IMG/VR virus record: IMGVR_UViG_641201351_000001
Span: 88,373-152,372 of that record
Length of the DNA: 64,000 bases
Origin: a virus
Taxonomy: Duplodnaviria; Caudoviricetes
Direction: 5' to 3' (one strand)
In this document: positions 914-38,704 of the stretch, piece after piece
Layout: each line of letters begins with the position of its first letter
Position numbering within the stretch: position 1 is the stretch's first letter
Position numbers and translations under genes: made by a program
Notes under the pieces: model-generated
Seen by the model: only the letters and a program-made list of their open reading frames with translations
Databases searched by the model: none
Told to the model about the DNA's origin: nothing

Positions 914-976
914 GCGTTATATATTTGAGATGACAGCGTTTACTTATTTTTTCGTTAGAAAAAACTAAAAATTTTC

Positions 977-1411
977 TCAAAACACTTCTCTTAATATCAC
1001 AAACTCAACTTCTCCAAAGCACAAATATAGCGAACTATTTTTATCATAAACTCCAAAAATTGGTTTGTATATTGAATATGATCGGTGCGCATAATCCTTT
1101 TCAGACTTTTCTTTTAAGTAATATCTAATCAAATCTTCATAATCTTCTATTTGTATAATGTCAAGAAGTTCTAATGTTATTCTTCTTTTGAAATCCTCCA
1201 CGCTTGCATGTTCTTTTAAAGCAAACATTCTTTTTTCTTTCCAGCGATTTAAAGCGTGTTTGTAATTTTTAAAATTCTCTTTGTATTTTGAATACGCTTT
1301 CTCAAAATCTTTGTAGTAAGTAATTTTGTGAGCATAATGCTTTAGAGAAATCATCGGGCTGTAGTGAGGTTGTGCAAAAAAGTATTTTTTGGCCTTTACT
1401 TCAAAAATCAT
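977..1411 (-). CDS. hypothetical protein ending EVF, paralog of 1424..1849
   Basis: shared EVKxKKYF, YEDLI, KPIxG, FGEVE motifs. Confidence 0.85.
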   Translation of the reverse strand: MIFEVKAKKYFFAQPHYSPMISLKHYAHKITYYKDFEKAYSKYKENFKNYKHALNRWKEKRMFALKEHASVEDFKRRITLELLDIIQIEDYEDLIRYYLKEKSEKDYAHRSYSIYKPIFGVYDKNSSLYLCFGEVEFVILREVF

Positions 1412-1423
1412 AATTAAACCCCT

Positions 1424-1849
1424 TCAAAACACTTCATGAATTTTCACATATTCAACTTCTCCGAAAAATACATAAGCTAGATTACTTTTATCGTGAAACC
1501 CCAAAATCGGTTTATGTATCAAAAAGAGATTTCTTTTAAACTTCCCATTCAAATATGAAGTTATCAAATCTTCGTAAGTTTCCATTGGAAACATATAAAG
1601 AACTTCTGATGTTCTTAAATTTTCAAAGTATTCTATAGGTTTTAATTCTTCCTCTAAAACAAACATTTTTATTCCCTCCCAACGATTAAATGCAACTTTG
1701 TAATTACGAAATTCTTTTTTGTAGGCTTCAAAAGCATTTTCAAAGGTTTTGTAATAGTAAATTTTGTAAGTATATCTCTTTAAGTGTATCTTTGGATTGT
1801 AGTAGGGTTTTACATAGAAATATTTTTTACCCTTGACCTCCAATGTCAT
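1424..1849 (-). CDS. hypothetical protein ending EVF, paralog of 977..1411
   Basis: GGAGGTG SD; promoter TTGCCT-17-TAGCCT at 1868-1896. Confidence 0.85.
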   Translation of the reverse strand: MTLEVKGKKYFYVKPYYNPKIHLKRYTYKIYYYKTFENAFEAYKKEFRNYKVAFNRWEGIKMFVLEEELKPIEYFENLRTSEVLYMFPMETYEDLITSYLNGKFKRNLFLIHKPILGFHDKSNLAYVFFGEVEYVKIHEVF

Positions 1850-2108
1850 GACTCACCTCCTAGCATCAGGCTAACACAAGGGGTGCTAAAAGGCAAGAAG
1901 GGCTTTGGTGTGGAAAAGGGTATTAAAATAGGGGGCCCAAAAATATGTGGATAGCGTTTACTTAGTTTTGGCAAAAATAAAAACAAAAAATAATTTCCTA
2001 GAAAATCTCTAGTGGAAAAATTTCAAAAACTTCTATATCTCCGAACAAAAGATTTCTCTATGTACTATTGGTCTAGTTTTCATTACAAACGGAATGTTTA
2101 TGTTCACC

Positions 2109-2555
2109 TCAAAAGTAAGGAAAATAGTCAGGGAAAAATATTAAGTCTACAAGTATTCTCTTCTTCGGATTATATCTATGTGTACTTTCGGCAAAAGACA
2201 ATATGATTGTATCAGGAACTAAACCTTTCCTATACGCAGATATTACCTTTTTGTGAATAAAAGGATGTGGGTTTTTAATAAATTCAAAAATGTTTTTGGA
2301 TTTTCTATAGTTAAGCCTGAAGTTATAGGGTGTAAAGGTAAAATATTGGTTTAGCATTAAAAACGCCTTAATACCAATATCTACAGGAATATCTGTACTT
2401 ACATACTTGTATCCGCTATATTTGTGGTCTTCCTTTAATCCGTATCCTTGAGGATTAAGAAATTCATTTACATCTTGAGCATACTTTTCTAAAATTTTCT
2501 TAAAGTGCGAACTTTTTACAATATAAAGTTTTGCGTAAGTGCTGCTTGCAACCAT
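2109..2555 (-). CDS. hypothetical protein (ends FPYF), leaderless
   Basis: promoter TTGACT-17-TAGGGT at 2562-2590. Confidence 0.8.
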   Translation of the reverse strand: MVASSTYAKLYIVKSSHFKKILEKYAQDVNEFLNPQGYGLKEDHKYSGYKYVSTDIPVDIGIKAFLMLNQYFTFTPYNFRLNYRKSKNIFEFIKNPHPFIHKKVISAYRKGLVPDTIILSFAESTHRYNPKKRILVDLIFFPDYFPYF

Positions 2556-2620
2556 GCTTGTACCCTATCACACACCAGGGGAATAGTCAAGGGGGGCTTA
2601 GCGTTTACTTAATTTTGGGT

Positions 2621-2648
2621 AAAAGAAAAACCTCCCCTTTCGGGGAGG
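2621..2648 (-). terminator. intrinsic terminator
   Basis: CCTCCCC-GAAA-GGGGAGG then TTTTTCTTTT on minus strand. Confidence 0.85.
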
Positions 2649-2663
2649 CTTGTATTCTTCTTG

Positions 2664-2894
2664 CTATTCAACCAAGATTTTCCTCACTTTACCATTCCTT
2701 TCCTCAACCCTAACCTTACCATATTTAGTATCCTCGTAGCCAATCACTTTCCATGTAGTATTCTTGCGGCAATCTTCACAATATTTAGGAGGACGGGTTT
2801 TGCTTTCGGTAACAAACTCCTTTTGGCACTTTTGGCACACAATCAAGACCTTCTTTACATGAACATTACGGACCTTCTTTTCGTTCTTGCCCAT
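2664..2894 (-). CDS. small zinc-ribbon protein
   Basis: CQKC...YCEDC; start re-set to ATG 2894 after GGAGGTG SD; promoter TTGACA-17-TATCTT at 2914-2942. Confidence 0.8.
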   Translation of the reverse strand: MGKNEKKVRNVHVKKVLIVCQKCQKEFVTESKTRPPKYCEDCRKNTTWKVIGYEDTKYGKVRVEERNGKVRKILVE

Positions 2895-3044
2895 CTTCTT
2901 CACCTCCACCCCCAAGATACCACAAAGAAAGATGATTGTCAAGGGGGGATTGAGAAGATTGACCTCGGTTGGGCTGGTTTTGCGTGAACTTCAGACTGCA
3001 AAGTTGCGAAGTTTGGAAGGGGATTGTTAAAAATAAACGCTTAA

Positions 3045-3452
3045 TCATAAATTGTCAGTTTCTTTATTTTCTTCTAGTTCCCTCAACTTTTTAGCATAAA
3101 ACCACTCTAAGAAGATGATAAAAAGTGTGTTAAATAGGAGATAAAGAACTAAGTCATTTGTATAAATCTTTTTTGTTATCATTTCTGTGGCAAAAAGAAA
3201 AATAAATTGAATTACAATGAAAGCTAATATTAAAATCCTTAAAAGGGGAATATCTTTGAAATCTGGATAAGTTTTCAAATAAGAGTCCTCAGCTTTTTTG
3301 CCAAAATTCATCATGAATATCGCAAACAAAATATAAAATTCCTTTTCGCTTAAAGCTAATAATTTTGCAACAATAAAAGAAAATGCGTTATAAATTAAAT
3401 AGAAAAACATTGACATTCTTATTGATTGTATTTGTGCTTCATGCTTGTTCAC
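3045..3452 (-). CDS. membrane protein, about 4 TM segments
   Basis: four hydrophobic stretches; GAGGTG SD. Confidence 0.75.
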   Translation of the reverse strand: MNKHEAQIQSIRMSMFFYLIYNAFSFIVAKLLALSEKEFYILFAIFMMNFGKKAEDSYLKTYPDFKDIPLLRILILAFIVIQFIFLFATEMITKKIYTNDLVLYLLFNTLFIIFLEWFYAKKLRELEENKETDNL

Positions 3453-3462
3453 TTTTCACCTC

Positions 3463-4008
3463 TCAGAAAGAAATGTTCTTTTTAACAAGGTAAGCGTTAG
3501 CGTACACTCTGAAAATATCTTCTCTTTCACCTTTAAACTCTACTTCTAACCTAAAAATTTTTATTGGCACAAAAAGATACGCTGGTATTCTTTGTAGAAT
3601 TTGCAAATCATTACATGCTTTAAAAAGCTCTTTAAAGGACTTAAAGAAAAATGCATGGTTTTCTACTCTTTTTAAATTTCTTGAAATTTCTAAAAAAAAC
3701 TCAGAATCAGCAGATCCTTTTACTGCAAGTGTTCTTGCTACACTAGCGGGATAAAGAAGCCAATATATGTCTTTCAAATCCACACTTTCTACCGAAACAA
3801 GTTTAAGATTTTTTAGTTTTAATATTTGCGGCCCTAACCCTTCATTTAGCATTTTAAAATCTTTTTCTATTTGAGAAAAATCATCTATGAAAACAACTTT
3901 GTTGCTAACGATTGAAGCCAATTTTTCAGACATTTTTTGAATATAGTCTTTTTCATTAAAGACTGCATATCGTTTATGTAAAACATCTAAGAATGGTGGT
4001 ACTTCCAT
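3463..4008 (-). CDS. hypothetical protein (ends ISF)
   Basis: SD; promoter TTGACA-17-TACACT at 4034-4062. Confidence 0.8.
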   Translation of the reverse strand: MEVPPFLDVLHKRYAVFNEKDYIQKMSEKLASIVSNKVVFIDDFSQIEKDFKMLNEGLGPQILKLKNLKLVSVESVDLKDIYWLLYPASVARTLAVKGSADSEFFLEISRNLKRVENHAFFFKSFKELFKACNDLQILQRIPAYLFVPIKIFRLEVEFKGEREDIFRVYANAYLVKKNISF

Positions 4009-4130
4009 TTAGGTTCACCTCCCCCCAAGAGGGAGTGTAACACAAGCCTAGGCGCTTGTCAAGAGCGCTTGATAAATGTGTATATATTTTGATAGCGTTT
4101 ATTTGTTTTATGACAAAACAAAAAAATTCC

Positions 4131-4673
4131 TTAAAATATCTCGTTAAGGCTATACAAATACATCTTTCCTAGCATTGCAGAAACCTCTATTTTTAGAGAG
4201 GTTTCTTCAGGTTTTGTATTTTCAAAGGTTATGTAATAATCGGGAATAAAGATTTGACCTTTTTTAAAATCAAAGATGTTGTCAATAGCGTAAAAGTATT
4301 TTTTGCTTACAACTTTAACTCTTATTTTGTCGCTATAAATTCCATTTATTCCATTTGCTGGAACAGCATAATCTGCTATGTAAAAAGCTATATCGTTTTT
4401 AAAAGTTTTTATTTTTCTTGGCGCAAATTTGTCAAGTAGCGATTCAAAAGGTGCGGATCTATAGTGATAAAGATTTTTAACAAATAAAGTTCCCAAATCA
4501 AGAATTGTGTCTATATCATATTTGTCTTCCTCAAAAATCATCATTGGAAGCCTTTTCTTTTCATTAAAGTCAAACTTTTTACCATTCTGAGTAATGTAGT
4601 ATCTGAAGATAACAAGAACTTCATCAGAAAATTTTTTCTCAAAAACTTCAGTATTTACGATGTTTCTAATCAT
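4131..4673 (-). CDS. hypothetical protein (ends EIF)
   Basis: TAATG coupling to the upstream gene, SD inside its last codons. Confidence 0.8.
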   Translation of the reverse strand: MIRNIVNTEVFEKKFSDEVLVIFRYYITQNGKKFDFNEKKRLPMMIFEEDKYDIDTILDLGTLFVKNLYHYRSAPFESLLDKFAPRKIKTFKNDIAFYIADYAVPANGINGIYSDKIRVKVVSKKYFYAIDNIFDFKKGQIFIPDYYITFENTKPEETSLKIEVSAMLGKMYLYSLNEIF

Positions 4674-5203
4674 TAAAACACCTCCTCTATTTTGTATTCA
4701 TACAAAACTCCAATTAATCCTTCTATCATTCCAGAAAGTTCATCTGTATCTTTCAAAAGTATTTTCCTTTGTGCAACAAATAAAGTATCGCCTTCTATTA
4801 CTTCTTTTAAATCTTTTATCTCTTCTATTTGAGAAGGCCTAAGATAAACAATAGACATTGTGTAGTCATCAATAACATGTTCGCTATAATCATCAATAAA
4901 AACCGAGAAATACTTTTTTTCAATAGCTTTGCTACAAACAACCTTTGTGCTGAAAGTCTTCAACAAATCTCTCTCAAGAGATAAACATGACAAGTTGTTG
5001 TAAAAATACTCAATTGATCTGTAAAAAGTTTTGTTGTCTACGAAATCAGAAATAATGAAAGATTTGTACAAAGAAAACTCTCCTACTATTTCGTCAGCAA
5101 AGCGATTGTTTTCGCTAGGATAATAGTCTAGTTCTAGATACGCTTTATATCTCTTCAAGATTTTAAAGGACTTTGACTCCAAGAAACCTTCTACTGCTTT
5201 CAT
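4673..5203 (-). CDS. hypothetical protein ending EEVF; family with 5965..6504 and 8461..8982
   Basis: shared KAYxExxYxP, FVAxRxxxL, IEGLxGxLYxYK; start re-set to ATG 5203. Confidence 0.85.
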   Translation of the reverse strand: MKAVEGFLESKSFKILKRYKAYLELDYYPSENNRFADEIVGEFSLYKSFIISDFVDNKTFYRSIEYFYNNLSCLSLERDLLKTFSTKVVCSKAIEKKYFSVFIDDYSEHVIDDYTMSIVYLRPSQIEEIKDLKEVIEGDTLFVAQRKILLKDTDELSGMIEGLIGVLYEYKIEEVF

Positions 5204-5246
5204 TCTAATCCCCCCCTTCTTAAAGACATAATCATAGCAATGAAAC

Positions 5247-5759
5247 TTAAAAAATCTCTTCACGATGCTTTACTCTATATATTCTTCCAACAAAACATTT
5301 TTCAATTAATTCTACCCTTTTAAACCATCTGCCTTCTCTAAATGACTCAACAACAGAATCAACAATAAGCAAGTAAACTGCAGGATAAAGCATTTCTAAA
5401 TCTGTTATTCTCTCTCTTATGTAATTCACTTCTGAAATCTTCATTCTATCGTAAACATAAGTTGTGTGAATTACTCTTTTGTTAGAAATAACCTTTTTCT
5501 CACTACCACTATGAGCTATAATATAGCAATCATACTCAGGGTCAAGAACTTGGTAAAAATAAATGTATTTGCGTCCTATCTTGTCAGTTGTTAGCTTAGA
5601 TATCTTTTTCAAGTATTCCTCTTTGTTCAAAATCTTCACTTCTCTAGATATGCCGCTATTAGAGAAAAAGTAGTTGGCATCTAAGATTTCTAAAAAAGGC
5701 AAAAAGTTTTTGAGGCTTTTGTAATCTTCTAGTTCTTTAATAATGCTTTCCCCCACCAT
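5247..5759 (-). CDS. hypothetical protein ending EIF; family with 7138..7653 and 7724..8254
   Basis: shared KEE, GRIYx[VI]K; promoter TTGACT-17-TAGCCT at 5777-5805. Confidence 0.85.
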   Translation of the reverse strand: MVGESIIKELEDYKSLKNFLPFLEILDANYFFSNSGISREVKILNKEEYLKKISKLTTDKIGRKYIYFYQVLDPEYDCYIIAHSGSEKKVISNKRVIHTTYVYDRMKISEVNYIRERITDLEMLYPAVYLLIVDSVVESFREGRWFKRVELIEKCFVGRIYRVKHREEIF

Positions 5760-5964
5760 GACACCTCCCCTCTTAAAGGCTACTGCTAAGGCCCTATAAA
5801 GTCAAGAAGAGAGAGGCAAGGCTTTATGAAGCACAAAAGCTAGGGGGGGGAAGATATATTTAGGATAGCGTTTACTTGTTTTTAACGAAACAAAAATCAA
5901 AAAGCTTCATTTGGAGTGTGGAAATGTCTATAAAACGGGGGACTATTTACTATGTCTTTAATCA

Positions 5965-6504
5965 TCAAAACACCTCCTCTATTTTGTATTCATATAAAAC
6001 TCCAGCCAATCCTTCTATCATTCCAGGAAAATCGCTAACATCATCAAGTAATATTTCTCTTTCAGCAACAAATAGTTGGTAGTTTCCTACTAGTTCTCTT
6101 AAGCTTTTTACTTCTTCTATTTGTGAAGGTTTGAGATATGAAACGACTATTGAGCTAACTTCATTGCTATAATCAACATATTCGTCAATAAAAAGCGAAT
6201 AATATTTTTTGGCAATTCTCTTGCCACTAATAACTTTCGTATCAAAAGTTTTAAATAAATCTCTTTCTAATGTTAAACCAGACATAACATTGTAGTAATA
6301 CTCAATGGCCTTGTAAAAGATTTTGTTGCTTACATAGTCAGAAATAATAAAAGCCTTACAACGAGAAAATTCTTCAACTATTTCGTCTGCAAAACGATTG
6401 CTATTGTTTGGATAGTAATTAAGTTCTAAGTAAGCTTTGTATATCTTTAATGCTTTAAAGTTAGCCGATTTTAAAAATTCCTCTAAAACTTTCACCTGCA
6501 TCAC
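5965..6504 (-). CDS. hypothetical protein ending EEVF, close paralog of 4673..5203
   Basis: near-identical C-terminus GMIEGLxGVLYEYKIEEVF. Confidence 0.85.
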   Translation of the reverse strand: MMQVKVLEEFLKSANFKALKIYKAYLELNYYPNNSNRFADEIVEEFSRCKAFIISDYVSNKIFYKAIEYYYNVMSGLTLERDLFKTFDTKVISGKRIAKKYYSLFIDEYVDYSNEVSSIVVSYLKPSQIEEVKSLRELVGNYQLFVAEREILLDDVSDFPGMIEGLAGVLYEYKIEEVF

Positions 6505-6512
6505 CTCCTTTC

Positions 6513-7001
6513 TCAGAACATGTAATCATAGGTCAATAAAAACCCCAGACCTAAAATATTGTGTGTTTCTTTCAATTTTCTAAAGCCTGCATTTAACACA
6601 AAAAACTCATCGTACTCCATAATAGGAAGAAACATAAAGTCTGTAAAATAATCTTCAATATGTGGCTTTACGAATGAGAAAATATTTTCCTCGTTTATTT
6701 CTTTAAATAAGATTTTTCCGTTTTCATCGTTAGTTACAAAAAATAGCTTTTCTTCATCGTAAAACTTAATATTTTTCACTTTTCTATCAGCGTCTTGATC
6801 TAAGGAAGCTTTTATTGCAGTATTTAAAAAATGTTCAAAATTTTTTCCTCCCAGATCAGTTTCGTATATGTGAGAAATCGTTGAAGCCACATCATTATCA
6901 AAATAATAGTATTTGATAGTTACTATTGAAAAGTGTCTTGCTTTAAACATTCCACTAATCTTCTTGATTTTTTCGTTTACTAAGCGAATGTATTCTTTCA
7001 T
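6513..7001 (-). CDS. hypothetical protein (ends YMF)
   Basis: start re-set to ATG 7001 after GAGGGGGTG; promoter TTGACC-17-TAAACT at 7021-7049. Confidence 0.75.
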   Translation of the reverse strand: MKEYIRLVNEKIKKISGMFKARHFSIVTIKYYYFDNDVASTISHIYETDLGGKNFEHFLNTAIKASLDQDADRKVKNIKFYDEEKLFFVTNDENGKILFKEINEENIFSFVKPHIEDYFTDFMFLPIMEYDEFFVLNAGFRKLKETHNILGLGFLLTYDYMF

Positions 7002-7137
7002 CTCTTCACCCCCTCGCCTTAGTTTAAAGGACAAAACGCCTTAGGTCAAGTAGCGTGCAAGCGCTCAGTTGTCTATATATAGAGGATAGCGTTTATCTAA
7101 CCTTTCACAAAAAAGAAAAAAATAAAAAACAATAATC

Positions 7138-7653
7138 TTAGAATACTTCTTTGCGATATTTGATCTTATATATTCGTCCTAAAGTTGACTCCTCAACTAT
7201 TTCTATTCTTTTTGTAAACATATTTTCTTTATAAGACGCAATCCTGTAATCAAGTACCAATAAGTAAACATTTGGATAAATGTTACTAACAAACTCTACT
7301 TCTCTTTGGAAGCTTTTTATTTTAATGGGAGAAGAATTATTAAATCTATCATATATGTAAGAAGGAAAACGCTTTCTAACATTAGATAATATATTGCTTT
7401 CTTCCCATTCGTGATAAACTAGATAGTATTTCGTTTCAGGGCGAAAAATTTGGTGGAAATATAAATACTTCCTGCCTTTTTTGTCAACTACTAGGCGAGA
7501 TAAAATTCTAATATATTCTTCTTTTTCTATCATTTTTATTTCATTAGAAACTTTCCACCCAGAACGAAAGTATTGTGATTTAATTATCTCAAGGAAAGGA
7601 AGAAAAGGTTTAATATCTTGAAAATCATTCAAGTCTTTTATTAGGTTTTTCAT
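7138..7653 (-). CDS. hypothetical protein ending EVF, paralog of 5247..5759
   Basis: FLPFLEI motif; promoter TTGACT-17-TAAGCT at 7678-7706. Confidence 0.85.
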   Translation of the reverse strand: MKNLIKDLNDFQDIKPFLPFLEIIKSQYFRSGWKVSNEIKMIEKEEYIRILSRLVVDKKGRKYLYFHQIFRPETKYYLVYHEWEESNILSNVRKRFPSYIYDRFNNSSPIKIKSFQREVEFVSNIYPNVYLLVLDYRIASYKENMFTKRIEIVEESTLGRIYKIKYRKEVF

Positions 7654-7723
7654 CTCTTTACCTCCCCTCCTCCCTAAAGCTTATACCTAAAGCGCCGTGG
7701 AGTCAAGGGAAGGCGCTTAACTC

Positions 7724-8254
7724 TTAAAAAACTTCTTTATGATGTTTAATTTTGTAAATTCGTCCAAATGTACATCTTTTAACGAAAGTTATTTCTTCTG
7801 TCAATTTGTTTTTCATATACAAGTCAATCTCAAAATCGTCAACTAAAAAGTAAATCAACTTGTCGCTTTTAAAATTCTCACTAGAAATTCTTAAAAGGAC
7901 TCTTCTAAACCTTTCTATCTCGTCATTGGTTATTCCATTAGAAAAAATATATGAGTAATGTCTACAAATACTAGGAATAACTTCAGTTTCCTCTCCAGTA
8001 TATTCCAATAAACAACAAGATTTTGGGTAAATGATTTTGTAGAAGAAGGTATACCTATTGTCTTCCTTCTCGCTTATTAACTCAGATATTGTCTGTAAGC
8101 ATTCTTCTTTTTCAATGATTTCTATATCTGGACATAAGTTTTCCTTTAAAACAAAATATTTTCCTTCAAAAACTTCTGCAAATGAAAGAATAAGCTTAAA
8201 TTTAGAAAAGTCGTCAAAATCTTTAACCAAATCTTTTGCCTCTTCTTTCCTCAT
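7724..8254 (-). CDS. hypothetical protein ending EVF, paralog of 7138..7653
   Basis: GRIYKIK; promoter TTGACC-17-TAAGCT at 8306-8334. Confidence 0.85.
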   Translation of the reverse strand: MRKEEAKDLVKDFDDFSKFKLILSFAEVFEGKYFVLKENLCPDIEIIEKEECLQTISELISEKEDNRYTFFYKIIYPKSCCLLEYTGEETEVIPSICRHYSYIFSNGITNDEIERFRRVLLRISSENFKSDKLIYFLVDDFEIDLYMKNKLTEEITFVKRCTFGRIYKIKHHKEVF

Positions 8255-8460
8255 CCTTACTCGCCCCCTCCTTACTTGCCCCTCCTTGACCTATGACACA
8301 ATAAAAGCTTACCCCTAAAGCCCCATAAGGTCAAGGAGGAGGATGAAGCTTTAGGAGAAGGTAAGCCCAAGGCTTTAGGGGGACATAAAACTGGCGAGAA
8401 GACATTTATTTAGGATAGCGTTTACTTATTTTTGACGAAACAAAAAATCAAAAAGCTTCA

Positions 8461-8982
8461 TTAGAAAACCTCATTAAGCTTATAAGTATACAAAGTGCCT
8501 ACTAACCCCTCTATTATTCCTGAACATTCATCAACATCATCTAGAAATACTTTTCTTTTTGCAACAAATAAAATATTAACATCTAGCAAGTTTTTCACAT
8601 CTTTTATTTCCGTTATTTGCTGTGGTTTAAAATAAGTAACATATACACCTACACTTTTTTCAATAGCTTTATAATCGTCAATTAAGATTGAATAACACTC
8701 TTTGTTTATTTTTTCCTCACCCAAAAATCTTACATCAAATTTCTTTGGAGCACCTCTTTCAACAGGAACAGATAAGAATCTATTGTAAAAATGTCCAATG
8801 CGCTTATAAAAAACTTGGTATTTCTCAGAATAATCACAAGTAATAAGTGTTTTATAAAATTCAAAACTAGAAACTACTTCTTTGGCAAAAATATTTCTTT
8901 CGCTAGGATGATAAGTAACTTCCATATAAGCCTTCTTTTTGCTAAGAATTTTAAATAGCCCTGCCTTTAAAAATCTTTCCAT
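8461..8982 (-). CDS. hypothetical protein ending EVF, paralog of 5965..6504
   Basis: promoter TTGACC-17-TAACCT at 9006-9034. Confidence 0.85.
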   Translation of the reverse strand: MERFLKAGLFKILSKKKAYMEVTYHPSERNIFAKEVVSSFEFYKTLITCDYSEKYQVFYKRIGHFYNRFLSVPVERGAPKKFDVRFLGEEKINKECYSILIDDYKAIEKSVGVYVTYFKPQQITEIKDVKNLLDVNILFVAKRKVFLDDVDECSGIIEGLVGTLYTYKLNEVF

Positions 8983-9202
8983 CCCACCACCTCCCCTTAC
9001 CTTAAAGGTTACTACTAAAGCCTTATAAGGTCAAGGGGGAATAGGAAAAGGCCTTGTGGGGATTGAGAGAGGGAACAAGACTTTACGAGGAAAAGACTAG
9101 CAGGGAAATATATATTTAGGATAGCGTTTACTTGATTTCTCTTTAAGTTTTGAGAAATAAAAAATCATTGGAAAAGAAAGATTTGTGAGAATATTAACCC
9201 TA

Positions 9203-10891
9203 TTACTCCAAATCTTCCATCCTAACGACAAGATATCCTTTGCTCATTAAGTCATTAAAGGCTTGCTTATCATAACCTTCTGTAGCGATTACAACAACAT
9301 CTTTGGGCATTTTTTCTAATCCGTAGATATGCAAATCTGTAATGACTATACCAGGAATATTCTTTTTAGACACATGTTCAAAAACTTTATCAAAAACGCT
9401 ACCACCACCTCCTTTTACACCATTTTTTAAGGATTTATGGAGTTTTGATACGCTATTAACATTTTCTATCTCTTGGAAATCAACATCATTAAAGTAGAGA
9501 TGAACATTAGCATTGTTCTCTACCAAAAACCTCAAGATTTTTATTGATTTCTCTAAATCCTCATTACCCATTGAGCCCGAGGTATCTACAATAACATACA
9601 TTTCAAGGCCAAAGTATTTTTTCTTCCCTAACACTAGACCATCGTTGCTTCTAAAGGATTTCTTTGGGTAAACGATTCTATGTCTAAAATATCCTCCACG
9701 ATACAAACGATTAAATAACTGAAGGACAAACTGAGGAATCTTTATCTTTTCATTTGTGTCAAGAATATTCCTAAGGAATCCACCTGTATTTCCGATGTGC
9801 TTTTTATTTTTCTCCAAAAATCCTTCAAGTATTCTCCTGTTCTTTTCATCATCGTAATCACTAACTTCATTGTTTTCGCCAATAAGTTGGCGAATGATTT
9901 CGTTTTTTATTGCATTATCCAAGGGACCAAATGATGAAGCATTCGCTAAATCTTCTTTAAACTTTGGATCGTTCTTTGCCTTATTCCTTATTTGATTAGC
10001 AACATCATTAAAGATGTTGTTTAGCAGATCAAAGAAGTTTTCTTGGGAACCTTGTCCTTGCTGATTGTTATTTTGTTCCTGGTTATTATTGTTTTGTACA
10101 CCCTGATTCTGTTGATTGTTTCCCCCTTGGTTTTGCTGGTTATTACCTTGATTCTGTTGATTATTCTCCTCTTGATTTTGCTGATTATCATTATCTTGTT
10201 TACCTTGATTTTGCTGACTATTTTGATTATTTAAGTGTTTATCAATGGATTCGCTAATCATCTGAGATATTTGTTGTGAAATATCTTCAAAAATATCAAA
10301 GAAGAACTCCATTAGCTCATAATCACTCATTTTCTTCAGTTGCTCAATATTAACGCCTTTAAGATTAGGCTTAAGTAGCATTCCCAAAGTATTAACGCCA
10401 TTGCGAATATTCTTTTCAAAATTTTCAAAACATATACTATTTTCCTTGATTTCCTTAGGATCATCTATAAACTGATACACGATTTCCTGAATAAACAAAT
10501 CCAAAACAAAATTAGTTAGCATCGAATTTATTCTAAAATAATGCTCAAATCGTTTAATATGCGATAGCCTTTGGTGCAAGATTTCGTGAAATAGGGTAGT
10601 TCCAACTGCATTATAAACTGGAGTATACTTTGTAAAAAGTTTTTCGTTAAGGTATATTACGGGCTTATTTTTTTCCTGAGTAGTGAATCCGTACATTCCA
10701 ACATTTTGACCATTAATCTCATCAGGAAAAACATAAATATCGGAAACCAATAAATCCTCGTAACCATTGAGAGTATAAAGTAGAGGTTCTCTATTCTTTG
10801 TACGATTAGGGGCAAAGAGGATTACTTTAAAAATATCCAAATATTCTGTATTTTCTATCTTTTTGGCGTGCTTTTTAATGATGTCAGTCAT
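9203..10891 (-). CDS. HExxH metallopeptidase-like plus vWA domain protein (DUF2201-like), partner of MoxR AAA+
   Basis: HEILH; Q/N-rich linker; MIDAS DTSGS...GGGGS...ITD; adjacent AAA gene. Confidence 0.85.
   Translation of the reverse strand: MTDIIKKHAKKIENTEYLDIFKVILFAPNRTKNREPLLYTLNGYEDLLVSDIYVFPDEINGQNVGMYGFTTQEKNKPVIYLNEKLFTKYTPVYNAVGTTLFHEILHQRLSHIKRFEHYFRINSMLTNFVLDLFIQEIVYQFIDDPKEIKENSICFENFEKNIRNGVNTLGMLLKPNLKGVNIEQLKKMSDYELMEFFFDIFEDISQQISQMISESIDKHLNNQNSQQNQGKQDNDNQQNQEENNQQNQGNNQQNQGGNNQQNQGVQNNNNQEQNNNQQGQGSQENFFDLLNNIFNDVANQIRNKAKNDPKFKEDLANASSFGPLDNAIKNEIIRQLIGENNEVSDYDDEKNRRILEGFLEKNKKHIGNTGGFLRNILDTNEKIKIPQFVLQLFNRLYRGGYFRHRIVYPKKSFRSNDGLVLGKKKYFGLEMYVIVDTSGSMGNEDLEKSIKILRFLVENNANVHLYFNDVDFQEIENVNSVSKLHKSLKNGVKGGGGSVFDKVFEHVSKKNIPGIVITDLHIYGLEKMPKDVVVIATEGYDKQAFNDLMSKGYLVVRMEDLE
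10060..10232 (-). repeat. low-complexity QQNQG/NNQQ coding repeats
   Basis: NNQQNQG units in the translation. Confidence 0.8.
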
Positions 10892-10907
10892 CTTCTCACC
10901 TCCCCTT

Positions 10908-11951
10908 CTAAACGCCCTTTTTGGAGATATTTTGCAAGTATTTGCTCAAGGTACTATTTTTGTGAGTGTGAACATACTCGTAAACATCGGCTTTCCATTC
11001 GTTACCATTGACCAATGCAGTATAGGACAACATATAGTGATCATATTTCTTGTGGTTTTTGTGAATGTAGTCAAAGATTTCGCTAAATTTATTAAGATCA
11101 ATCATTCCTTTCTTTACAAGATCGGCGACATCCACAATCAACGATAACACCTCATTGTCATTTCTAGGATAATCTCCCTTAGCGTAGTTTTTGTAAGAAT
11201 AATACCTACCTTGAATAATATAGTTCTTAAAGGCTAAATATACTTTCCTTCCCGATGATCCAGAGATGATAATATCAAGCTCGCTATCAATAGACATAAC
11301 ATAATCTTCATTTCCTACCATTTCGTTATTGATTAAATCCTTTAGAAGAATAGCAGTACGAGTATTATTCCTTGGAGAAGGATACTGGTTTAAATCATCA
11401 TCTTTTGGCTCTTCGTAAAACATATGATCTGGACTATTAAGAATGAAAGATACAAACAAAGGATTCCCGCCTCTACTCATCGTATACGAAGCCCATTCCT
11501 CTTTTGAGGGAATGGGAAAATCAATAACTACAAACCTCTCTACTAATGGACGAGGGATTATTGTGGCTACTGAAGATTGTTCAGGTTTATTGCCTGTAGC
11601 AATGAAGTAAATATTTTCAAACTTTTTGTCGCCGATTCTCTTGTCAAGTACCAAAGATTGTAAAAGCGAGTGCATATCTGGATTCCTATTCGTCAACTCA
11701 TCAAGAATAACGATTTTATTATTAAGATCAAAGGTTACAAAGTGTAGCATTTCTTCCCTGACTTGTGGGAATGAAATATTTTCTGGAAACATTTGAGAAA
11801 CATTAAGATAGAATACCTCCAAACCCATTTCCCTGGCGATTTCCCAAGATACATTAGTTTTTCCTATTCCCCTATCTCCGAGGAATAGGACCGGGAATCC
11901 ACTAGTAAGAATTTTTTTAGCGATGTTTTTTACCTTTGTTACTCTCTCCAT
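10908..11951 (-). CDS. MoxR-like AAA+ ATPase
   Basis: Walker A GDRGIGKT, Walker B IVILDE, ATGN sensor I, ERF Arg finger, SPR sensor II; promoter TTGACT-17-TAAGCT at 11987-12015. Confidence 0.9.
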   Translation of the reverse strand: MERVTKVKNIAKKILTSGFPVLFLGDRGIGKTNVSWEIAREMGLEVFYLNVSQMFPENISFPQVREEMLHFVTFDLNNKIVILDELTNRNPDMHSLLQSLVLDKRIGDKKFENIYFIATGNKPEQSSVATIIPRPLVERFVVIDFPIPSKEEWASYTMSRGGNPLFVSFILNSPDHMFYEEPKDDDLNQYPSPRNNTRTAILLKDLINNEMVGNEDYVMSIDSELDIIISGSSGRKVYLAFKNYIIQGRYYSYKNYAKGDYPRNDNEVLSLIVDVADLVKKGMIDLNKFSEIFDYIHKNHKKYDHYMLSYTALVNGNEWKADVYEYVHTHKNSTLSKYLQNISKKGV

Positions 11952-12089
11952 CTTTTACCTCCTTTGCCCCTCAAGGGGGCGCTTTTAGCTTAACACAAGC
12001 CGCTACGCAAGTCAAGCGCCTAGGCAAGACAAAAGAAGCAAAGCGCCTAGGCGCAACAAAGAGAATAAGATAGCGTTTACTTATTTTTC

Positions 12090-12785
12090 TCAGAAAACTT
12101 CTTCAAGAAAAATGTTTAGCGAAAAGTGATAGTTGAAATAAAACACTCTATCATTTATTCTTTCACCAGAAAGATAGAACTTGTGATTTAGTGTTTTTGA
12201 AAGGTTGTAGAGTATTTTTTCTTCATTTATTTCTGTTGGCGCTGAAATCAGGTTTTCAAAAAAAGCTTCTTTTAAAACATTGCTGTAAACGCTTGGATTG
12301 CTACGATAATAATAGGCATCTTTTATTGTTGCGAAGTGTAAATAAACGATTGTATCGTAGTTTGAAGGAAGTTTGTAAAGTTTGTCTTCATTTTCTAGTT
12401 CTATTGATAGAAGATGATACTTTTCTTTGATTTTCTTTTTTATTGGGTTTTGTTGAAATGCCAAGCGATAAATCTTTTTTTTGCTCAAAAATTTTTTAAA
12501 CTTGTGAACTACTTGCCCTACAAAGCTATCAAAATCGTTAGGAGTTGTGTAATACTTTTCAAATCCTCTTTTGACCTCAAACCTCAAAGTTGAAGTTTTG
12601 TATTGAACTACAAAAAACTTTGAGGATTCTTCTATTTCTGTTTTCAGCGATATCAACCTTTTTTCAAAGACTTTTAAAAAATCCTCATATGAAAATACAG
12701 ATAAAGTTTTTGTTTTAATCTTATACTTCAGATTGTTTTTCGGCCTATATAAAGTAATCGTGATTAGTTTAGCATCAGCAGACAT
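12090..12785 (-). CDS. hypothetical protein ending EEVF
   Basis: 231-aa ORF. Confidence 0.75.
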   Translation of the reverse strand: MSADAKLITITLYRPKNNLKYKIKTKTLSVFSYEDFLKVFEKRLISLKTEIEESSKFFVVQYKTSTLRFEVKRGFEKYYTTPNDFDSFVGQVVHKFKKFLSKKKIYRLAFQQNPIKKKIKEKYHLLSIELENEDKLYKLPSNYDTIVYLHFATIKDAYYYRSNPSVYSNVLKEAFFENLISAPTEINEEKILYNLSKTLNHKFYLSGERINDRVFYFNYHFSLNIFLEEVF

Positions 12786-12803
12786 ATCTCATTTTTGCAA
12801 AAC

Positions 12804-12843
12804 AAAAAGAAAACTTCACTACCCCAAAACGAGGTAGTGAAGT
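12804..12843 (-). terminator. intrinsic terminator
   Basis: ACTTCACTACC/GGTAGTGAAGT stem with T-tract on minus strand, just after the 12855 stop. Confidence 0.8.
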
Positions 12844-12854
12844 CTAAATATTGC

Positions 12855-13601
12855 TTAGAACAAGCTCATGATGTTGTATTTATCTACGAGGATTTTAGTG
12901 AACTCTTCAGATGTGCTTACCAATCCCTTAACAGCATTCAAAGATTCATTGTTCTTTTCCACAATATTAACCACAAGTTGAACCATATCCCTAACATTAG
13001 TGATGTGGCTCTTCAAAAACTCAGCATTGATCTCGTTTTCTTTTGCTATAGTATTAAGAGCCTTTTTAATGACCCTTGGACCAAAAGCATTTATAAACTT
13101 TTCAAGATCCTTATCATCTACATTTTGTTCAAGGAAAGTATTTGCAACATCTTTGTTTTCTTCAAGGATGTTGATGATTTTGTAGACATCACGCTTCATA
13201 ATATTCCCCTTTGTATGTTTATTGGAAAAGTTTAGAAGAAGTGGCTTGTAAATGATATTTTCCTTAAACATACCAGAATAAGAGTTCACATAGTAGATAG
13301 TATTGTTCTTTGTAAGGAAATAGTACCTAGAGATGTAAACTGGATTATCAGGTTCAAACAATGGATTAATGTTGTCAAGTTCAGAGAACTTGAAAACACC
13401 ATAACGAGAAGTAACATAGTTGAAGAAGAGTTTTTCAGTTTCATGGGCGAAAATGTATTCATCGCTAAAAAGATTAATGAGGACCAAATCATTTTCAAAA
13501 TCCTTAACATTATTTACCCTAAGAACATAGAAGAAGTTTTTACGAAGATTTTCAACGAGATTGACAGACTCTTTAATGTTGTAGATCTTCATCTCTTTCA
13601 T
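12855..13601 (-). CDS. hypothetical protein, helical C-terminus (ends SLF)
   Basis: AAGGAGGT SD; promoter TTGACT-17-TAGGCT at 13643-13671; own terminator. Confidence 0.85.
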   Translation of the reverse strand: MKEMKIYNIKESVNLVENLRKNFFYVLRVNNVKDFENDLVLINLFSDEYIFAHETEKLFFNYVTSRYGVFKFSELDNINPLFEPDNPVYISRYYFLTKNNTIYYVNSYSGMFKENIIYKPLLLNFSNKHTKGNIMKRDVYKIINILEENKDVANTFLEQNVDDKDLEKFINAFGPRVIKKALNTIAKENEINAEFLKSHITNVRDMVQLVVNIVEKNNESLNAVKGLVSTSEEFTKILVDKYNIMSLF

Positions 13602-13765
13602 CTTTACCTCCTTGCCTACCCAAGGCGGGGTAGGCTATGCCTAGCCTATCACTACTGAACTATTTAGTCAAGGGGGCCTGGTAAGCAGAAGGAGAAGCGC
13701 ACTAAGGAATAGGATAGCGTTTACTTATTTTTTGCGGATTAAAAAAATAATCAAAAACATTTCGC

Positions 13766-14158
13766 TTAAAATAGCTCTCTAAATACTACCCTATCCTCAA
13801 GCTTTATGTCAAACTTCATCAGGTCTTCATTTAAAAAGCAGTAAAAACTAATATATGCAAAAATGTGGTAGTCATTGTCTAACTTTTCTGTATTTTTGTT
13901 TTCAACGATTTTGTAAAGAAACTTTTCGTTGCGAATATCAGTATTTTTTGAGAAGATTTTTTCGTCATTAATACAGATGTCTACTTTTACCTTGTGAATC
14001 TTGTTCACTTGAGAGAGGATTTTTCTATTAAGTTTTCGCCAAAAGGGAATAAGGCTACTATGTTCTTTCATACGATAAATAACTTCATCAGATTTTCTAC
14101 ATTGCGAAAGGTTTTGTAGTGTAAGTACAACCTTTACAAATACTTCTTTTCTCTTCAC
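13766..14158 (-). CDS. hypothetical protein ending ELF
   Basis: GTG directly after upstream stop, with GGAGGTG SD. Confidence 0.8.
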   Translation of the reverse strand: MKRKEVFVKVVLTLQNLSQCRKSDEVIYRMKEHSSLIPFWRKLNRKILSQVNKIHKVKVDICINDEKIFSKNTDIRNEKFLYKIVENKNTEKLDNDYHIFAYISFYCFLNEDLMKFDIKLEDRVVFRELF

Positions 14159-14704
14159 TTAAATCACCTCCTTATTAAGGCGAAGCTTCAAGATGATTTC
14201 CAGGAAAATGTACTCGTAAAAATAGTCAGAATATACTTTATATCCGTTATATGTATCAACTTTTCTTTTTCTATATATTGCGGCGTGGATTTCTGGTCTT
14301 TTAACATTATTTTCCAAAAGCTCCGGCAACGCTTGTTTAAAGAACTCGTTAATATTTCTAAGAAGGTAATCCGAATATTTTTCATCATCATTGGGCAAAG
14401 CTTTGAATCTTTTTGGATTTAAACGCTTTCCACGAATATTTGTTTCAATGTTTATATAGAACATATTTTGCTCATTGGGTAAGAATGTGTGCAAGTAGCA
14501 ATATAACTTTTCGGCATGCTCTAATACCTTACAGAAATCTTCAAACTTAGGATTTGAAACTATCCTCATTTTGAAGCTATCATAGATTTCCTTAGAATCT
14601 TCACCACCTATTTCGTTCATAAAGTAATGTGAGGCACCAACATAATATTCGTCAAGATCAGCTATCATTTCCCATTTCCACGCCTCTTTGAGCTTGTCTT
14701 TCAC
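14159..14704 (-). CDS. hypothetical protein ending EVI; family with 14705 and 15244
   Basis: WKWEMI, YYVGxSHY, SNPKFED shared with 14705..15244. Confidence 0.85.
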   Translation of the reverse strand: MKDKLKEAWKWEMIADLDEYYVGASHYFMNEIGGEDSKEIYDSFKMRIVSNPKFEDFCKVLEHAEKLYCYLHTFLPNEQNMFYINIETNIRGKRLNPKRFKALPNDDEKYSDYLLRNINEFFKQALPELLENNVKRPEIHAAIYRKRKVDTYNGYKVYSDYFYEYIFLEIILKLRLNKEVI

Positions 14705-15244
14705 TTAAATCACCTCCCTTAGCATTTCCAGATTTAAAGAAACTTCAAAAAGGACATACTCATAAAATAACGAATCCTCATAATCTTCAATGTCATCATC
14801 TTCTAACTGCACCTTACTTCTCCTGTATATAGAAGCATATATTTTAACATTCTTAATGTTATCTTTCAAAAGCTTTGGCAAGTTCTTTTTAAATACATGA
14901 TTTATCCTGTTCATCATAAAATCTGAATAGCTTTTCCACCTTCTGGGTGATACATAAGAAGTATAAGGCTTTGTGCTTCTAGAATATGGCTCTGTTTCAA
15001 TGTCAATATACAATATGTCCTCCTCCTTGGGAAGAAAGGTTTGAAAATAGGCATAAAGGCTTTCTGCATGCTTTAAGTTTTTGTATAAATCTTCAAACTT
15101 AGGATTTGAAAATATTTTTATTGAAAACTCGGCGTATACTTTCTTTGTATTTTCTTCATCAAACTCATCTACAACATAGTGAGAACTGCCAACATAGTAA
15201 GAAGATAGTTTAGTTATCATTTCCCATTTCCAGATTTTGTTCAT
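14705..15244 (-). CDS. hypothetical protein ending EVI, paralog of 14159..14704
   Basis: clear sequence similarity. Confidence 0.85.
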   Translation of the reverse strand: MNKIWKWEMITKLSSYYVGSSHYVVDEFDEENTKKVYAEFSIKIFSNPKFEDLYKNLKHAESLYAYFQTFLPKEEDILYIDIETEPYSRSTKPYTSYVSPRRWKSYSDFMMNRINHVFKKNLPKLLKDNIKNVKIYASIYRRSKVQLEDDDIEDYEDSLFYEYVLFEVSLNLEMLREVI

Positions 15245-15735
15245 CAGAACACCCCCTTTATCGCAAGAAGAAGTTCTGTTTCAAATGTGGCATATTGAGT
15301 ATATATTTCAGATATTTTGTGTCTTCTCTCAATACCAAGAAGCATCTTAATCTTTTTTGTGTTTTTTGAAACGATTTCTTTTAAAACATTCCTAAAATAT
15401 TGGTTCATTTCAGAAACGATATAGTCTGCATAACTTACACAAGCTTTTACCTCTTTTACATAATCAGGGTGCAAAAGATACATGCCTTCTAAATAGGTTC
15501 TAATGAAAAATCTTTCATCACCATTTAAATCCTCCACAAGATATAAATAAAAATCTTCTCCTTCTTTAAGGAGTTCATAAAGTTTTTCAAAGCTTTTGTC
15601 TTTTACGATTCTTTTTGAGAACTCATCAAAGATTCTAAAACTTTCTATTTCGCCGCCATCATCTATAATATAGGCATGACATTTTACAGACATCATTTCT
15701 ATCTCAGATATTGAATCCCACAAAAGCTTTTGCAC
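15244..15735 (-). CDS. hypothetical protein ending GVF, distant paralog of the two downstream genes
   Basis: similar spacing of W, H-Y, FE-LY, YxDY; promoter TTGACT-17-TATCCT at 15754-15782. Confidence 0.8.
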   Translation of the reverse strand: MQKLLWDSISEIEMMSVKCHAYIIDDGGEIESFRIFDEFSKRIVKDKSFEKLYELLKEGEDFYLYLVEDLNGDERFFIRTYLEGMYLLHPDYVKEVKACVSYADYIVSEMNQYFRNVLKEIVSKNTKKIKMLLGIERRHKISEIYTQYATFETELLLAIKGVF

Positions 15736-16078
15736 GGCTCACCTCCCAGGTCTAGGATAAGGCTCAAGAGGAGTCCAGTCAAGCCCACTCTAGGAAAAGA
15801 TTTGATTTTGCATTTCAAACTTTTTATTTTTCGCTAAACACAAAATGAACTTCTACGCTAACATTTTTATTACTGCACCTTATTTTTGTAAACTACATAA
15901 AAAAATAGCTATTCTTCTAGTATCTTTGGTTTGGCTTGTGTTAAGGTTTAGGATTGCGTTTATTTTTTTAGCAAAAATCTTTAAGCTTTCTCACAAAAGT
16001 TCAATTTATGAGTAAACGCTTAATCATAGTTTGCGAAAAAAAAAATAAAAAATCATTAGAAGAAGGATTTCTTATAGT

Positions 16079-20272: not shown

Positions 20273-20399
20273 AACGCACCTCCTCTCAAGCTCTAGGATA
20301 AGCGCTATAGGACGCTTTGTCAAGAGTCTAGTGTCGTCAACTAAGCGAAGCGAAATAAGGCTTTATCTTGCGTGAAAATCTTATTTAAACTTTAATTCG

Positions 20400-21447: not shown

Positions 21448-21625
21448 GCTACACACCTCCCCTCTGCTACCCCAACTATAAGCCTCACAAGGCCCTATGT
21501 CAAGGGGGGGTTAGTGTGTTTTTACTAGAAGAAGCACGGCGAGGCTTTTATTGTGAGTGAAATCTTGTTTAAACATTTTTGGGTGGTACACTATTATCCA
21601 AGTCTGGAAGGACAAACAAACAACG

Positions 21626-26660: not shown

Positions 26661-26782
26661 CTCCCTCCTACCTCTCTAGTATAGAGGCTAGGCGCAAAGC
26701 TGCCAAGCCTTTATTTTTAGGGTAAGCCTTATTTAAAAGTTTAAACATTTGCTAGATAAAAATCTTTTATGTTCATTATCTC

Positions 26783-29697: not shown

Positions 29698-30030
29698 TGA
29701 AACCTTGATTTTTGGGCAAAATTGGGGGTTTTATTTTCTTATGTCGATTTTCCTATAGGCGAAACAAAATTATAGGGCGACATAAAATCAAAATCTTTGA
29801 TTTTTGCTAAAAATTGAAAGTTTTATTTTTTTATAAGATTTTCCTATAAGCGAAATAAAACTTTAGGTGGTGTGAAAATAAAAATCTTTGAATTTTGCGC
29901 AAAATTGAAGGTTTTAAAATTTCATAAGGTTTTGCTATAGGTGAAATAAAAAACTGAAAGAACAAAAAACTAAAATCTTTGATTTTTTGGCGAAATTAAA
30001 AGTTTTAAAATTTTGTAAGGTTTTATAGGG
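29698..30030. repeat. non-coding degenerate tandem repeat, ~91-bp period, ~3.6 copies
   Basis: AAAATCTTTGAtTTTTG..AAAATTG..GGTTTT..TAAG.TTTT.CTATAGG.GAAA units starting ~29698, 29790, 29881, 29972. Confidence 0.85.
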
Positions 30031-31627: not shown

Positions 31628-31650
31628 AGCATCAGTATAACAAAAAAATT

Positions 31651-31727
31651 TGGTGGGGCGTGTAGGACTCGAACCTACAACCAATCGGTTATGAGCCGAC
31701 CGCTCTCACCGCTTGAGCTAACGCCCC
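31651..31727 (-). tRNA. tRNA with CAT anticodon, probably Ile2 (lysidine type), alternatively Met
   Basis: GGGGCGT/ACGCCCC acceptor stem, CTCATAA loop, GTTCGAGTC T-arm, encoded CCA. Confidence 0.9.
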
Positions 31728-31739
31728 ACGATTATTATT

Positions 31740-31816
31740 TGGCGAGGGGTGCAGGACTTGAACCTGCAACCTAGGGATTAGAAATCCCTTGCTCTGTCCT
31801 GTTGAGCTAACCCCTC
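31740..31816 (-). tRNA. tRNA-Arg(TCT)
   Basis: GAGGGGT/ACCCCTC acceptor stem, AGGGA-TTTCTAA-TCCCT anticodon arm, encoded CCA. Confidence 0.95.
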
Positions 31817-38683: not shown

Positions 38684-38704
38684 TAGAATTAAGTGGAGGA
38701 AGTT

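Follow-up and report, generated by a model that had tools for sequence, protein, structure and literature searches.

phiYS40 is among the few phages of thermophiles whose transcription programme has been studied, and the factor that shuts off its early genes was reportedly unknown in the 2007 work of Sevostyanova et al. Within the right-hand 64,000 nucleotides of the genome of this Thermus phage, referred to here as the window, a short word that we call motif A recurs in the spacers between early genes. The question is what this word does there: whether it closes the unit that precedes it, regulates the one that follows, acts in RNA, or serves as a site at which units are moved between phages.

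Copies, orientation and conservation of motif A

Scanning the window for motif A at up to two mismatches yielded 13 matches, whereas the shuffled sequences that define the chance level gave 0.57 on average and never more than 3. Eleven of these are intergenic matches on the + strand, at positions 932-945, 1950-1963, 2597-2610, 4091-4104, 5864-5877, 7085-7098, 8414-8427, 9120-9133, 12069-12082, 13713-13726 and 15952-15965. Because all genes here lie on the minus strand, the sense orientation of the motif is AAGTAAACGCTATC(C), and it is as minus-strand features that the copies are described below. Six of the 11 are exact (1950, 5864, 8414, 9120, 12069 and 13713), the copy at 4091 carries one mismatch, those at 2597, 7085 and 15952 carry two, and the copy at 932 reads AAGTAAACGCTGTC in the sense orientation. 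All 11 fall in spacers that separate minus-strand ORFs, the sole overlap being that of the copy at 1950 with a doubtful 46-aa ORF, and the first to be met along the direction of transcription is that at 15952. The remaining two matches, at 40520 (minus strand) and 46292 (plus strand), lie within long ORFs and look like chance.

A preliminary description of the window had listed 11 intergenic copies in one orientation, which the scan bore out. It had also placed the start of the cluster at 932, and this had to be corrected, as seven further copies lie up to 3.7 kb to the left of the window. The total is thus 18 copies in a 20-kb early-gene region (genome 84.6 to 104.3 kb), all on one strand, a set that includes two copies with three mismatches in which the TAAACGC core is kept, both left of the window. 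When the scan was taken genome-wide, as had been proposed, the other 132 kb of the phiYS40 genome gave only three matches at up to two mismatches, which is chance level. The core also occurs inverted, on the plus strand, at each of the three positions previously listed: in spacers at 200-207 and at 3034-3041, the latter directly past the stop of the gene at 3045-3452, and at 16013-16020 (TAAACGCT), about 47 nt from the copy at 15952, with which it forms a convergent pair.

The same clustering and orientation are found in the phages TMA (16 copies) and YS40_Isch (13 copies) and in a 157-kb viral contig. An exact 14-mer scan of viral contigs gave 115 stretches with one match per stretch among the matches listed, which is consistent with chance. 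Among metagenome contigs, 40 loci matched a 19-mer, and seven of these are phiYS40-like fragments that were left out of our counts. A protein-based search for relatives found only those that are about 93% identical, and no distant one. In a text search of the literature for the motif strings, the matches listed were unrelated primers only, and it should be noted that the primary papers on phiYS40 transcription and on the phiYS40 and TMA genomes may mention the motif.

Motif A is under purifying selection. Whether it is any better conserved than its flanks was asked in 41 orthologous comparisons among four phages, with motif copies ascertained in one genome only, and 562 of 574 motif positions (97.9%) were identical, as compared with 84-89% in the flanks; the motif is thus substituted about six times less than the sequence around it. 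When copies are compared with one another, similarity is lost to background only a few bases into the flanks, and the genes ahead of the motif belong to different families.

Position relative to T-runs, hairpins and promoters

In the window, motif A lies 7-145 nt past a stop codon and 6-169 nt ahead of the next TTGAC -35 box, a range that widens to 5-295 nt over the 18 copies. The placement between stop and -35 box at variable distance, as first described, therefore holds, except that no TTGAC was found after the copy at 1950. The shortest stop distance belongs to the copy at 12069 (7 nt), the copy at 932 lies 31 nt past the stop of the gene at 977-1411 with a TTGAC 18 nt on, that at 2597 has its TTGAC 6 nt on, and that at 9120 follows a gene for a 562-aa VWA-like protein.

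The spacing of the motif is fixed to an upstream T-run and not to the promoter. A run of at least four T ends 7-14 nt ahead of 14 of the 18 phiYS40 copies and is absent from this range at the other four; over the four genomes this holds for 41 of 60 copies, against a background of 0.10-0.11. An A-run abuts the motif. In the sense orientation the module consists of a T-rich tract, some 10 nt with the A-run at their end, and AAGTAAACGCTATCC, in this order. One such A-run and T-rich tract, at 5878-5915 (minus strand), precedes the copy at 5864, and a near-identical module stands ahead of the copy at 8414. Most early units are closed by motif A just past their T-rich ends, and the motif is both co-oriented with transcription and confined to the spacers of this one early region.

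A hairpin stable at 65 °C precedes 5 of the 18 copies, 13 have none within 45 nt upstream, and none lies inside the motif. The earlier statement that the motif has no hairpin is accordingly right for 10 of the 11 window copies and wrong for that at 2597, directly before which a canonical GC-rich terminator hairpin is found (2628-2651, minus strand), with its T-tract ending 10 nt ahead of the copy. The motif resembles a bacterial intrinsic terminator in standing at the 3' end of units beside a T-tract, in five cases after such a canonical hairpin. However, it comes after the T-tract, outside the hairpin, and is conserved in sequence and not in structure; a GC hairpin with a U-tract is not a property of the motif, which is not an intrinsic terminator. 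No conserved RNA structure was detected at motif A (mean z of about -1 at 37 °C, driven by the five terminators), and a comparison with Rfam gave no match. Inverted repeats of T-runs and A-runs beside the motif, taken by eye for hairpins, proved unstable at 65 °C and no better than shuffles. Likewise rejected were two likenesses of CTATCCTAA, one to the DnaA box, with 6 of 9 consensus positions shared, and one to lambda boxA, both judged by eye and too weak.

The strict co-orientation with transcription and the 3' untranslated position would suit an element read in RNA, namely a cleavage or protein-binding site in read-through early transcripts that separates or stabilizes the mRNAs of the units, a role played by RNase III sites in the early operon of T7. 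Indeed, the 13 copies without a stable terminator before them are for this reason probably transcribed. Nonetheless, we consider RNA-level action improbable, because the five other copies lie beyond strong intrinsic terminators, which weakens the case for RNA processing, and because there is neither a conserved fold nor an Rfam match, and the core also appears inverted in spacers.

The preliminary description had also offered an operator, at which a phage regulator bound to motif A would turn the early promoter that follows off or on. In favour of this, the motif is present in 17 of the approximately 23 long spacers of the region, in most cases alongside a TTGAC promoter, and in the leftmost units the interval from motif to promoter holds further inverted cores and GCGTTTA repeats. 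The fit is nonetheless poor, as the distance to the -35 box follows no fixed position over its range of 5-295 nt, and the last two copies are followed not by an early promoter but by a -10-only promoter of the leaderless type. Three promoter-bearing spacers, moreover, lack the motif, and its spacing follows the upstream T-run instead of the promoter. An operator is, in our judgment, no less improbable than an RNA element.

Exchange of units between related phages

Homology between the phages drops from about 90-100% to background at the edges of motif A; the copy at 8414, for example, and the sequence upstream of it are 100% identical to TMA, and beyond the motif identity is at background. Among the cross-genome pairs of copies, which are phylogenetically non-independent and come from only four closely related genomes plus fragments, 18 show homology on a single flank, with background similarity on the opposite one, and 20-21 show it on both. 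With the -35 box as control anchor, the corresponding one-sided and both-sided counts are 1 and 10, with the Shine-Dalgarno sequence they are 7 and 55, and anchors shifted by 120 or 200 nt give 0-5 one-sided pairs. A shift of -60 nt gives 14 one-sided pairs, and some junctions therefore lie at the upstream edge of the T-rich tract and not at the motif itself.

Two ORFan units that are found only in phiYS40 are each flanked by two copies of the motif (1950 and 2597 in the window, and 86306 and 86840 in genome coordinates), where the relatives carry a single copy. The first occupies 1964-2596 (minus strand) and consists of a promoter, an ORFan of 148 aa (2109-2555) and a T-rich tail, with the copy at 1950 as its lower and that at 2597 as its upper boundary. 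A search of 50,697 phage records found no match to either ORFan. Motif A is thus the point at which related phages exchanged, gained and lost promoter-ORFan-tail units. The earlier suggestion of a crossover hotspot for the shuffling of units, to be examined by mapping indel breakpoints, is well supported by this comparison with three related phages.

Such junctions could also be produced at a dedicated recombination site, with an unrecognised site-specific recombinase or nicking enzyme moving cassettes as in integrons and with the conservation reflecting recognition by the enzyme. Sharp junctions at the motif edges, the two cassettes that lie between direct copies where relatives have one, and the single orientation of all copies are in line with this. 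The integron attC site, an imperfect inverted repeat at cassette boundaries that is used by a tyrosine recombinase, is likewise repeated at the boundaries of cassettes that are present or absent between relatives. Unlike attC, however, motif A has no imperfect palindrome or other inverted-repeat structure and no conserved fold, and the phiYS40 cassettes have their own promoters. The phiYS40 genome has no match to the families Phage_integrase, Resolvase, HNH, HNH_3, GIY-YIG and OrfB_IS605. As such a site would also leave the fixed T-run spacing and the junctions at the far edge of the T-rich tract (those of the -60 shift) unexplained, we regard it as quite improbable. Rad51-like and Rad52-like recombinases are reported for phiYS40 (PMC2896510).

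As to the proteins encoded by the units, 19 of 20 have no Pfam family at an E-value of 0.01 or better, and no DNA-binding family was found among them. Two small paralogous ones do give a zinc-ribbon signal, but a weak one that does not reach the curated cut-off.

The preliminary description pointed out that several copies contain TAGGAT, and 5 of the 11 window copies indeed do, spanning the motif start. The hexamer also serves as the -10 box in two minus-strand promoter-like matches in the region, yet a plus-strand promoter that drives antisense transcription into the preceding gene from its 3' end, as had been proposed, is very unlikely: six copies lack TAGGAT, the promoter scan found a -35/-10 pair, and thus a sigma70-type promoter, at no copy, the TG extension is missing where the -10-only promoters of leaderless genes have a TG-extended TAnAAT, and the best-conserved bases lie downstream of the putative box. 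Finally, a mere leftover of tandem duplication of genes with their 3' flanks, suggested by the paralogous genes and about 45 nt of common upstream flank before the copies at 5864 and 8414, has a negligible probability, as the other copies follow unrelated genes, their flanks are at background within a few bases, and the motif is far less substituted than its flanks between orthologues.

The proposed 3' boundary module and comparable systems

Our best explanation, to which we give an even chance of being correct, is that early units of phiYS40-type Thermus phages are closed by a 3' boundary module with motif A as its conserved core, and that this motif is read by a protein, is linked to termination or insulation, and offers a microhomology for crossover. 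As regards its biochemical role, we infer that a sequence-specific protein, most likely phage-encoded, would read the motif at the DNA level; the five copies beyond a hairpin terminator stable at 65 °C and the inverted cores in spacers were counted toward this. At the T-tract, the bound protein may then stop or insulate the RNA polymerase of the host, much as in termination by a roadblock combined with a T-rich element, and a factor-dependent termination site would indeed fit the fixed position after the T-run. Homologous recombination of the phage would probably use motif A as a patch of microhomology, because it is the sole sequence common to otherwise unrelated spacers, and this would lead to cassette shuffling of the kind seen with PeSLs in T4-type phages.

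PeSLs (promoter-early stem-loops) are described as sigma70-type promoters with a stem-loop, about 100 bp of which are conserved, and excised mini-circles with one chimeric copy are reported for them (Arbiol et al. 2010, PMC2839356; Comeau et al. 2014, PMC4122927). Like motif A, they recur in spacers and cluster in early regions rich in ORFans, where units have their own promoter and terminator; in both, one phage may have an ORFan bracketed by two copies at a place where its relative has just one, and the motif is the exchange point between otherwise unrelated sequences. Motif A differs in being a word of 14-20 nt that is neither promoter nor stem-loop, with a variable distance to the promoter and no stable stem-loop at 13 of 18 copies, and phiYS40 is of another lineage and host (Thermus, 65-70 °C).

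The terminators of RNA polymerase I, with Reb1, Nsi1 or TTF-I as roadblock, are described as having a T-rich element 15 bp upstream of the roadblock site and as still requiring a hairpin (PMC12366685). Both these sites and motif A are polar and non-palindromic and stand at a fixed short distance after a T-rich element (15 bp as compared with about 10 nt), and some copies of motif A are also preceded by an RNA hairpin. However, most copies lack the hairpin that the Pol I terminator needs, and the Pol I system is eukaryotic with a known binding protein, whereas motif A would act on a bacterial polymerase through a putative one.

By analogy, one can tentatively propose, as an unlikely but specific form of the boundary module, that T-tract and motif A together terminate transcription by a bacterial RNA polymerase with the help of a protein and independently of a hairpin. 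A polar DNA-binding protein encoded by the phage would halt the polymerase of Thermus on a U-rich hybrid, at 65-70 °C, and bring about its release, and the site would double as the portable end of mobile promoter-ORFan cassettes. To our knowledge, roadblock termination without a hairpin has not been established for bacterial RNA polymerase. If true, such a terminator would be the bacterial counterpart of the Reb1 and TTF-I terminators of RNA polymerase I.

A conserved, selected and oriented word at the ends of early units provides a concrete handle on early-gene shut-off in phiYS40, and the comparison of its relatives yields exact junctions of gene gain and loss. Whatever the mechanism, the cassette shuffling at a conserved regulatory word that has so far been described for T4-type phages is likewise at work in an unrelated phage of a thermophile, where it shapes the ORFan-rich early region.

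Copy number, distribution and conservation of motif A

The window spans bases 88373–152372 of a 152,372-bp genome, which is phiYS40 or a phage nearly identical to it. It is 92% identical to Thermus phage TMA and 86% to YS40_Isch, and all ORFs in its first 28 kb lie on the minus strand, so that the working (sense) orientation of motif A, a 14-mer found between early-gene units, is AAGTAAACGCTATC. Positions given below are those of the window, unless the genome is stated. The array reported in the preliminary description, with 11 same-strand intergenic copies, was confirmed: allowing up to two mismatches, 11 plus-strand copies are found at 932–15965 (six being exact), where shuffled sequence gives a mean of 0.57 in the window. 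A genome-wide scan showed that the cluster also runs on to the left of the window, with seven more copies at genome 84655–87456, two of which have three mismatches and retain the TAAACGC core. The same scan found the inverted cores noted at 200, 3034 and 16013. In total, 18 copies on a single strand lie within 20 kb, and the remaining 132 kb of the genome contain only three matches with up to two mismatches, which is about chance level. Every copy is located in a spacer, and 17 of the approximately 23 spacers of at least 35 nt in the region contain one. Both the cluster and its orientation recur in TMA (16 copies), YS40_Isch (13 copies) and a 157-kb viral contig.

Such an array could be a simple relic of duplication, with a motif no better conserved than its surroundings. 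Orthologous sites were located through their flanks, with motif A demanded in just one genome per pair. Identity across motif A was 562 of 574 positions (97.9%), as opposed to 84–89% for the 40-nt flanks on either side, in 41 orthologous comparisons that include two rows from a coding look-alike and are not independent pairs. This difference indicates that motif A is under selection, so the refuting condition set in the preliminary description, a motif no better conserved than its flanks, does not hold. The copies follow genes that fall into different small paralog groups or into no group, and a longer flank is shared only between copies 5864 and 8414. Unrelated upstream genes and the higher conservation of the motif together rule out a duplication relic.

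Anatomy of the motif and its surroundings

In the sense orientation, motif A follows the stop codon by 7–198 nt and precedes the next TTGAC by a variable 5–295 nt. The fixed side is the upstream side, with its A-run and T-run. The column profile presents an A-run at positions −7 to −3; its core columns are invariant by selection of the sites and thus carry no weight. A T-run of at least four, ending 7–14 nt before the motif, was found for 14 of the 18 phiYS40 copies and for 41 of 60 over the four genomes (background, 0.10–0.11). Canonical GC-rich terminator hairpins, stable at 65 °C, precede five of the 18 copies, and folding at this temperature yielded no stable structure at the other 13. As a hairpin precedes so few copies while the T-run keeps a set distance, motif A is not a terminator hairpin, yet it is located at the end of a terminator's T-tract. 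The eye-catching inverted repeats of T-run and A-run were rejected as hairpins, since they fold no better than shuffles. The two copies farthest downstream, as transcription runs, stand in tandem directly before a 612-aa gene, whose upstream region is of the −10-only, leaderless type.

Several other features were noted nearby. After copies 5864, 7085, 8414, 9120 and 13713, the sense strand is rich in C and poor in G from motif A up to the −35 box that follows (C 29–41%, G 8–17%; region, 15% and 19%). This stretch often terminates in a C-run adjoining TTGAC, and it may be a Rho-loading-like tract or else a feature of the sequence upstream of the promoter. In the leftmost units, left of the window (about 7600–7700 and 9250–9450 of L162, the stretch that includes this DNA; genome 85.6–87.4 kb), the interval from motif A to the promoter that follows contains inverted cores, overlapping GCGTTTA repeats (e.g. 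three in a row) and a common word, AGCGTTTCAGCGT, all of which look like iterons or operators. Minus-strand spacers in the right half of the array (about 20340–20380, 21540–21580 and 26700–26740) share a different word after an A-run, about GTTTAAAYAAGATTTYCAC, which like motif A contains TAAAC and may be its diverged counterpart.

As for genes, a conserved pair within the early region (9203–11951, minus strand) encodes a protein of 562 aa, which has a VWA-like DUF2201 domain, and next to it an ATPase of 347 aa. The phage relatives of this ATPase carry the annotation MoxR-like. Two adjacent minus-strand paralogs of 75–76 aa (L162 6867–7094 and 7328–7558) have strong matches to DUF6839 (E about 1e-34 to 1e-36). 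Genes outside the array (at 38693, 54950, 32405, 29633 and others) lack a Shine-Dalgarno sequence and have a TG-extended TAnAAT box 6–8 nt ahead of the start codon, which fits the leaderless middle/late promoters that phiYS40 reportedly uses. Upstream of ORF 30023–31684 (about 31690–31740, minus strand), the sequence by inspection resembles a tRNA gene in its 3′ part.

Crossover junctions between related phages

For all cross-genome pairs of copies, we compared 80-nt flanks, considered homologous at an identity of 0.78 or more and background at 0.60 or less (background median, 0.57). Both flanks were homologous in 20–21 pairs; in 18 pairs one flank was homologous and the other at background, and in 27 the other was intermediate. 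For example, phiYS40 copy 8414 and TMA 93820 are 100% identical upstream and across motif A and unrelated beyond, and genome copy 87456 and TMA 87754 are likewise identical upstream through the motif and then unrelated. In the viral contig, a single copy has the upstream flank of copy 2597 on one side and the downstream flank of copy 1950 on the other, so that 1964–2596 (minus strand; a promoter, an ORFan at 2109–2555 and a T-rich tail) is a phiYS40-only unit bounded by two copies. A second such case is presented by phiYS40 genome copies 86306 and 86840, as opposed to single copies in TMA and YS40_Isch. The ORFans of both units had no tblastn match among 50,697 phage records.

One-sided pairs were much scarcer at control anchors: one, against 10 both-sided pairs, for −35 boxes, and seven against 55 for Shine-Dalgarno sites. 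Moving the motif positions by 120 or 200 nt left 0–5 one-sided pairs, and moving them by −60 nt gave 14, which we read as junctions on the upstream side of the T-rich tract, at its edge (e.g. copy 5864 and the viral contig). Such junctions suggest that the T-tract-plus-motif module is portable as a whole. The earlier proposal of a crossover hotspot for shuffling units is thus supported by the 18 one-sided pairs and by the two phiYS40-only units, and motif A is shown, as judged from genome comparison, to be a crossover point for unit exchange among related phages.

Profile searches of the whole genome gave no match to Phage_integrase, Resolvase, HNH, HNH_3, GIY-YIG or OrfB_IS605. Rad51-like and Rad52-like recombinases have both been reported for phiYS40, as outlined in PMC2896510. 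The economical reading would be that cassettes are exchanged by homologous exchange at a shared patch of roughly 20 nt.

Possible function and comparison with known systems

Motif A would be read as DNA by a sequence-specific protein, as selection acts on its sequence rather than on structure, as it lies beyond strong terminators in five of the 18 cases and as its core is also found inverted in spacers. A polar roadblock or insulator at the motif would hold RNA polymerase over the T-tract, and its position about 10 nt after the T-run, in line with the direction of transcription and regardless of where the next promoter lies, makes a role in termination or insulation plausible. Pfam searches of the unit proteins named no binding protein and gave nothing useful except for weak zinc-ribbon or MCM-OB-like signals, below cut-offs, in two minus-strand paralogs of phrog_19431 (92 aa, 2664–2942; 81 aa, L162 8909–9154). 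Both are followed downstream by a terminator and then motif A, and they are possible nucleic-acid binders.

Among the papers listed by a text search of the literature covered, the motif A strings turned up in unrelated primers and not in a phage context, although they may have been described in the primary phiYS40 or TMA papers. The nearest described geometry to the T-run and motif is the Pol I terminator, in which, as presented in PMC12366685, a T-rich element precedes the Reb1/Nsi1 site by 15 bp. A hairpin was found to be required there as well, whereas most motif A copies lack one. The closest described system is the promoter-early stem-loop (PeSL) cassette of T4-type phages, as far as PMC2839356 and PMC4122927 outline it: there too, ORFans are flanked by two copies where a relative has one, and the sites lie in variable early regions. 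As motif A is neither a promoter nor a stem-loop, the two defining PeSL sequence features, we do not place it in that family and consider it an element that works like PeSL in genome evolution.
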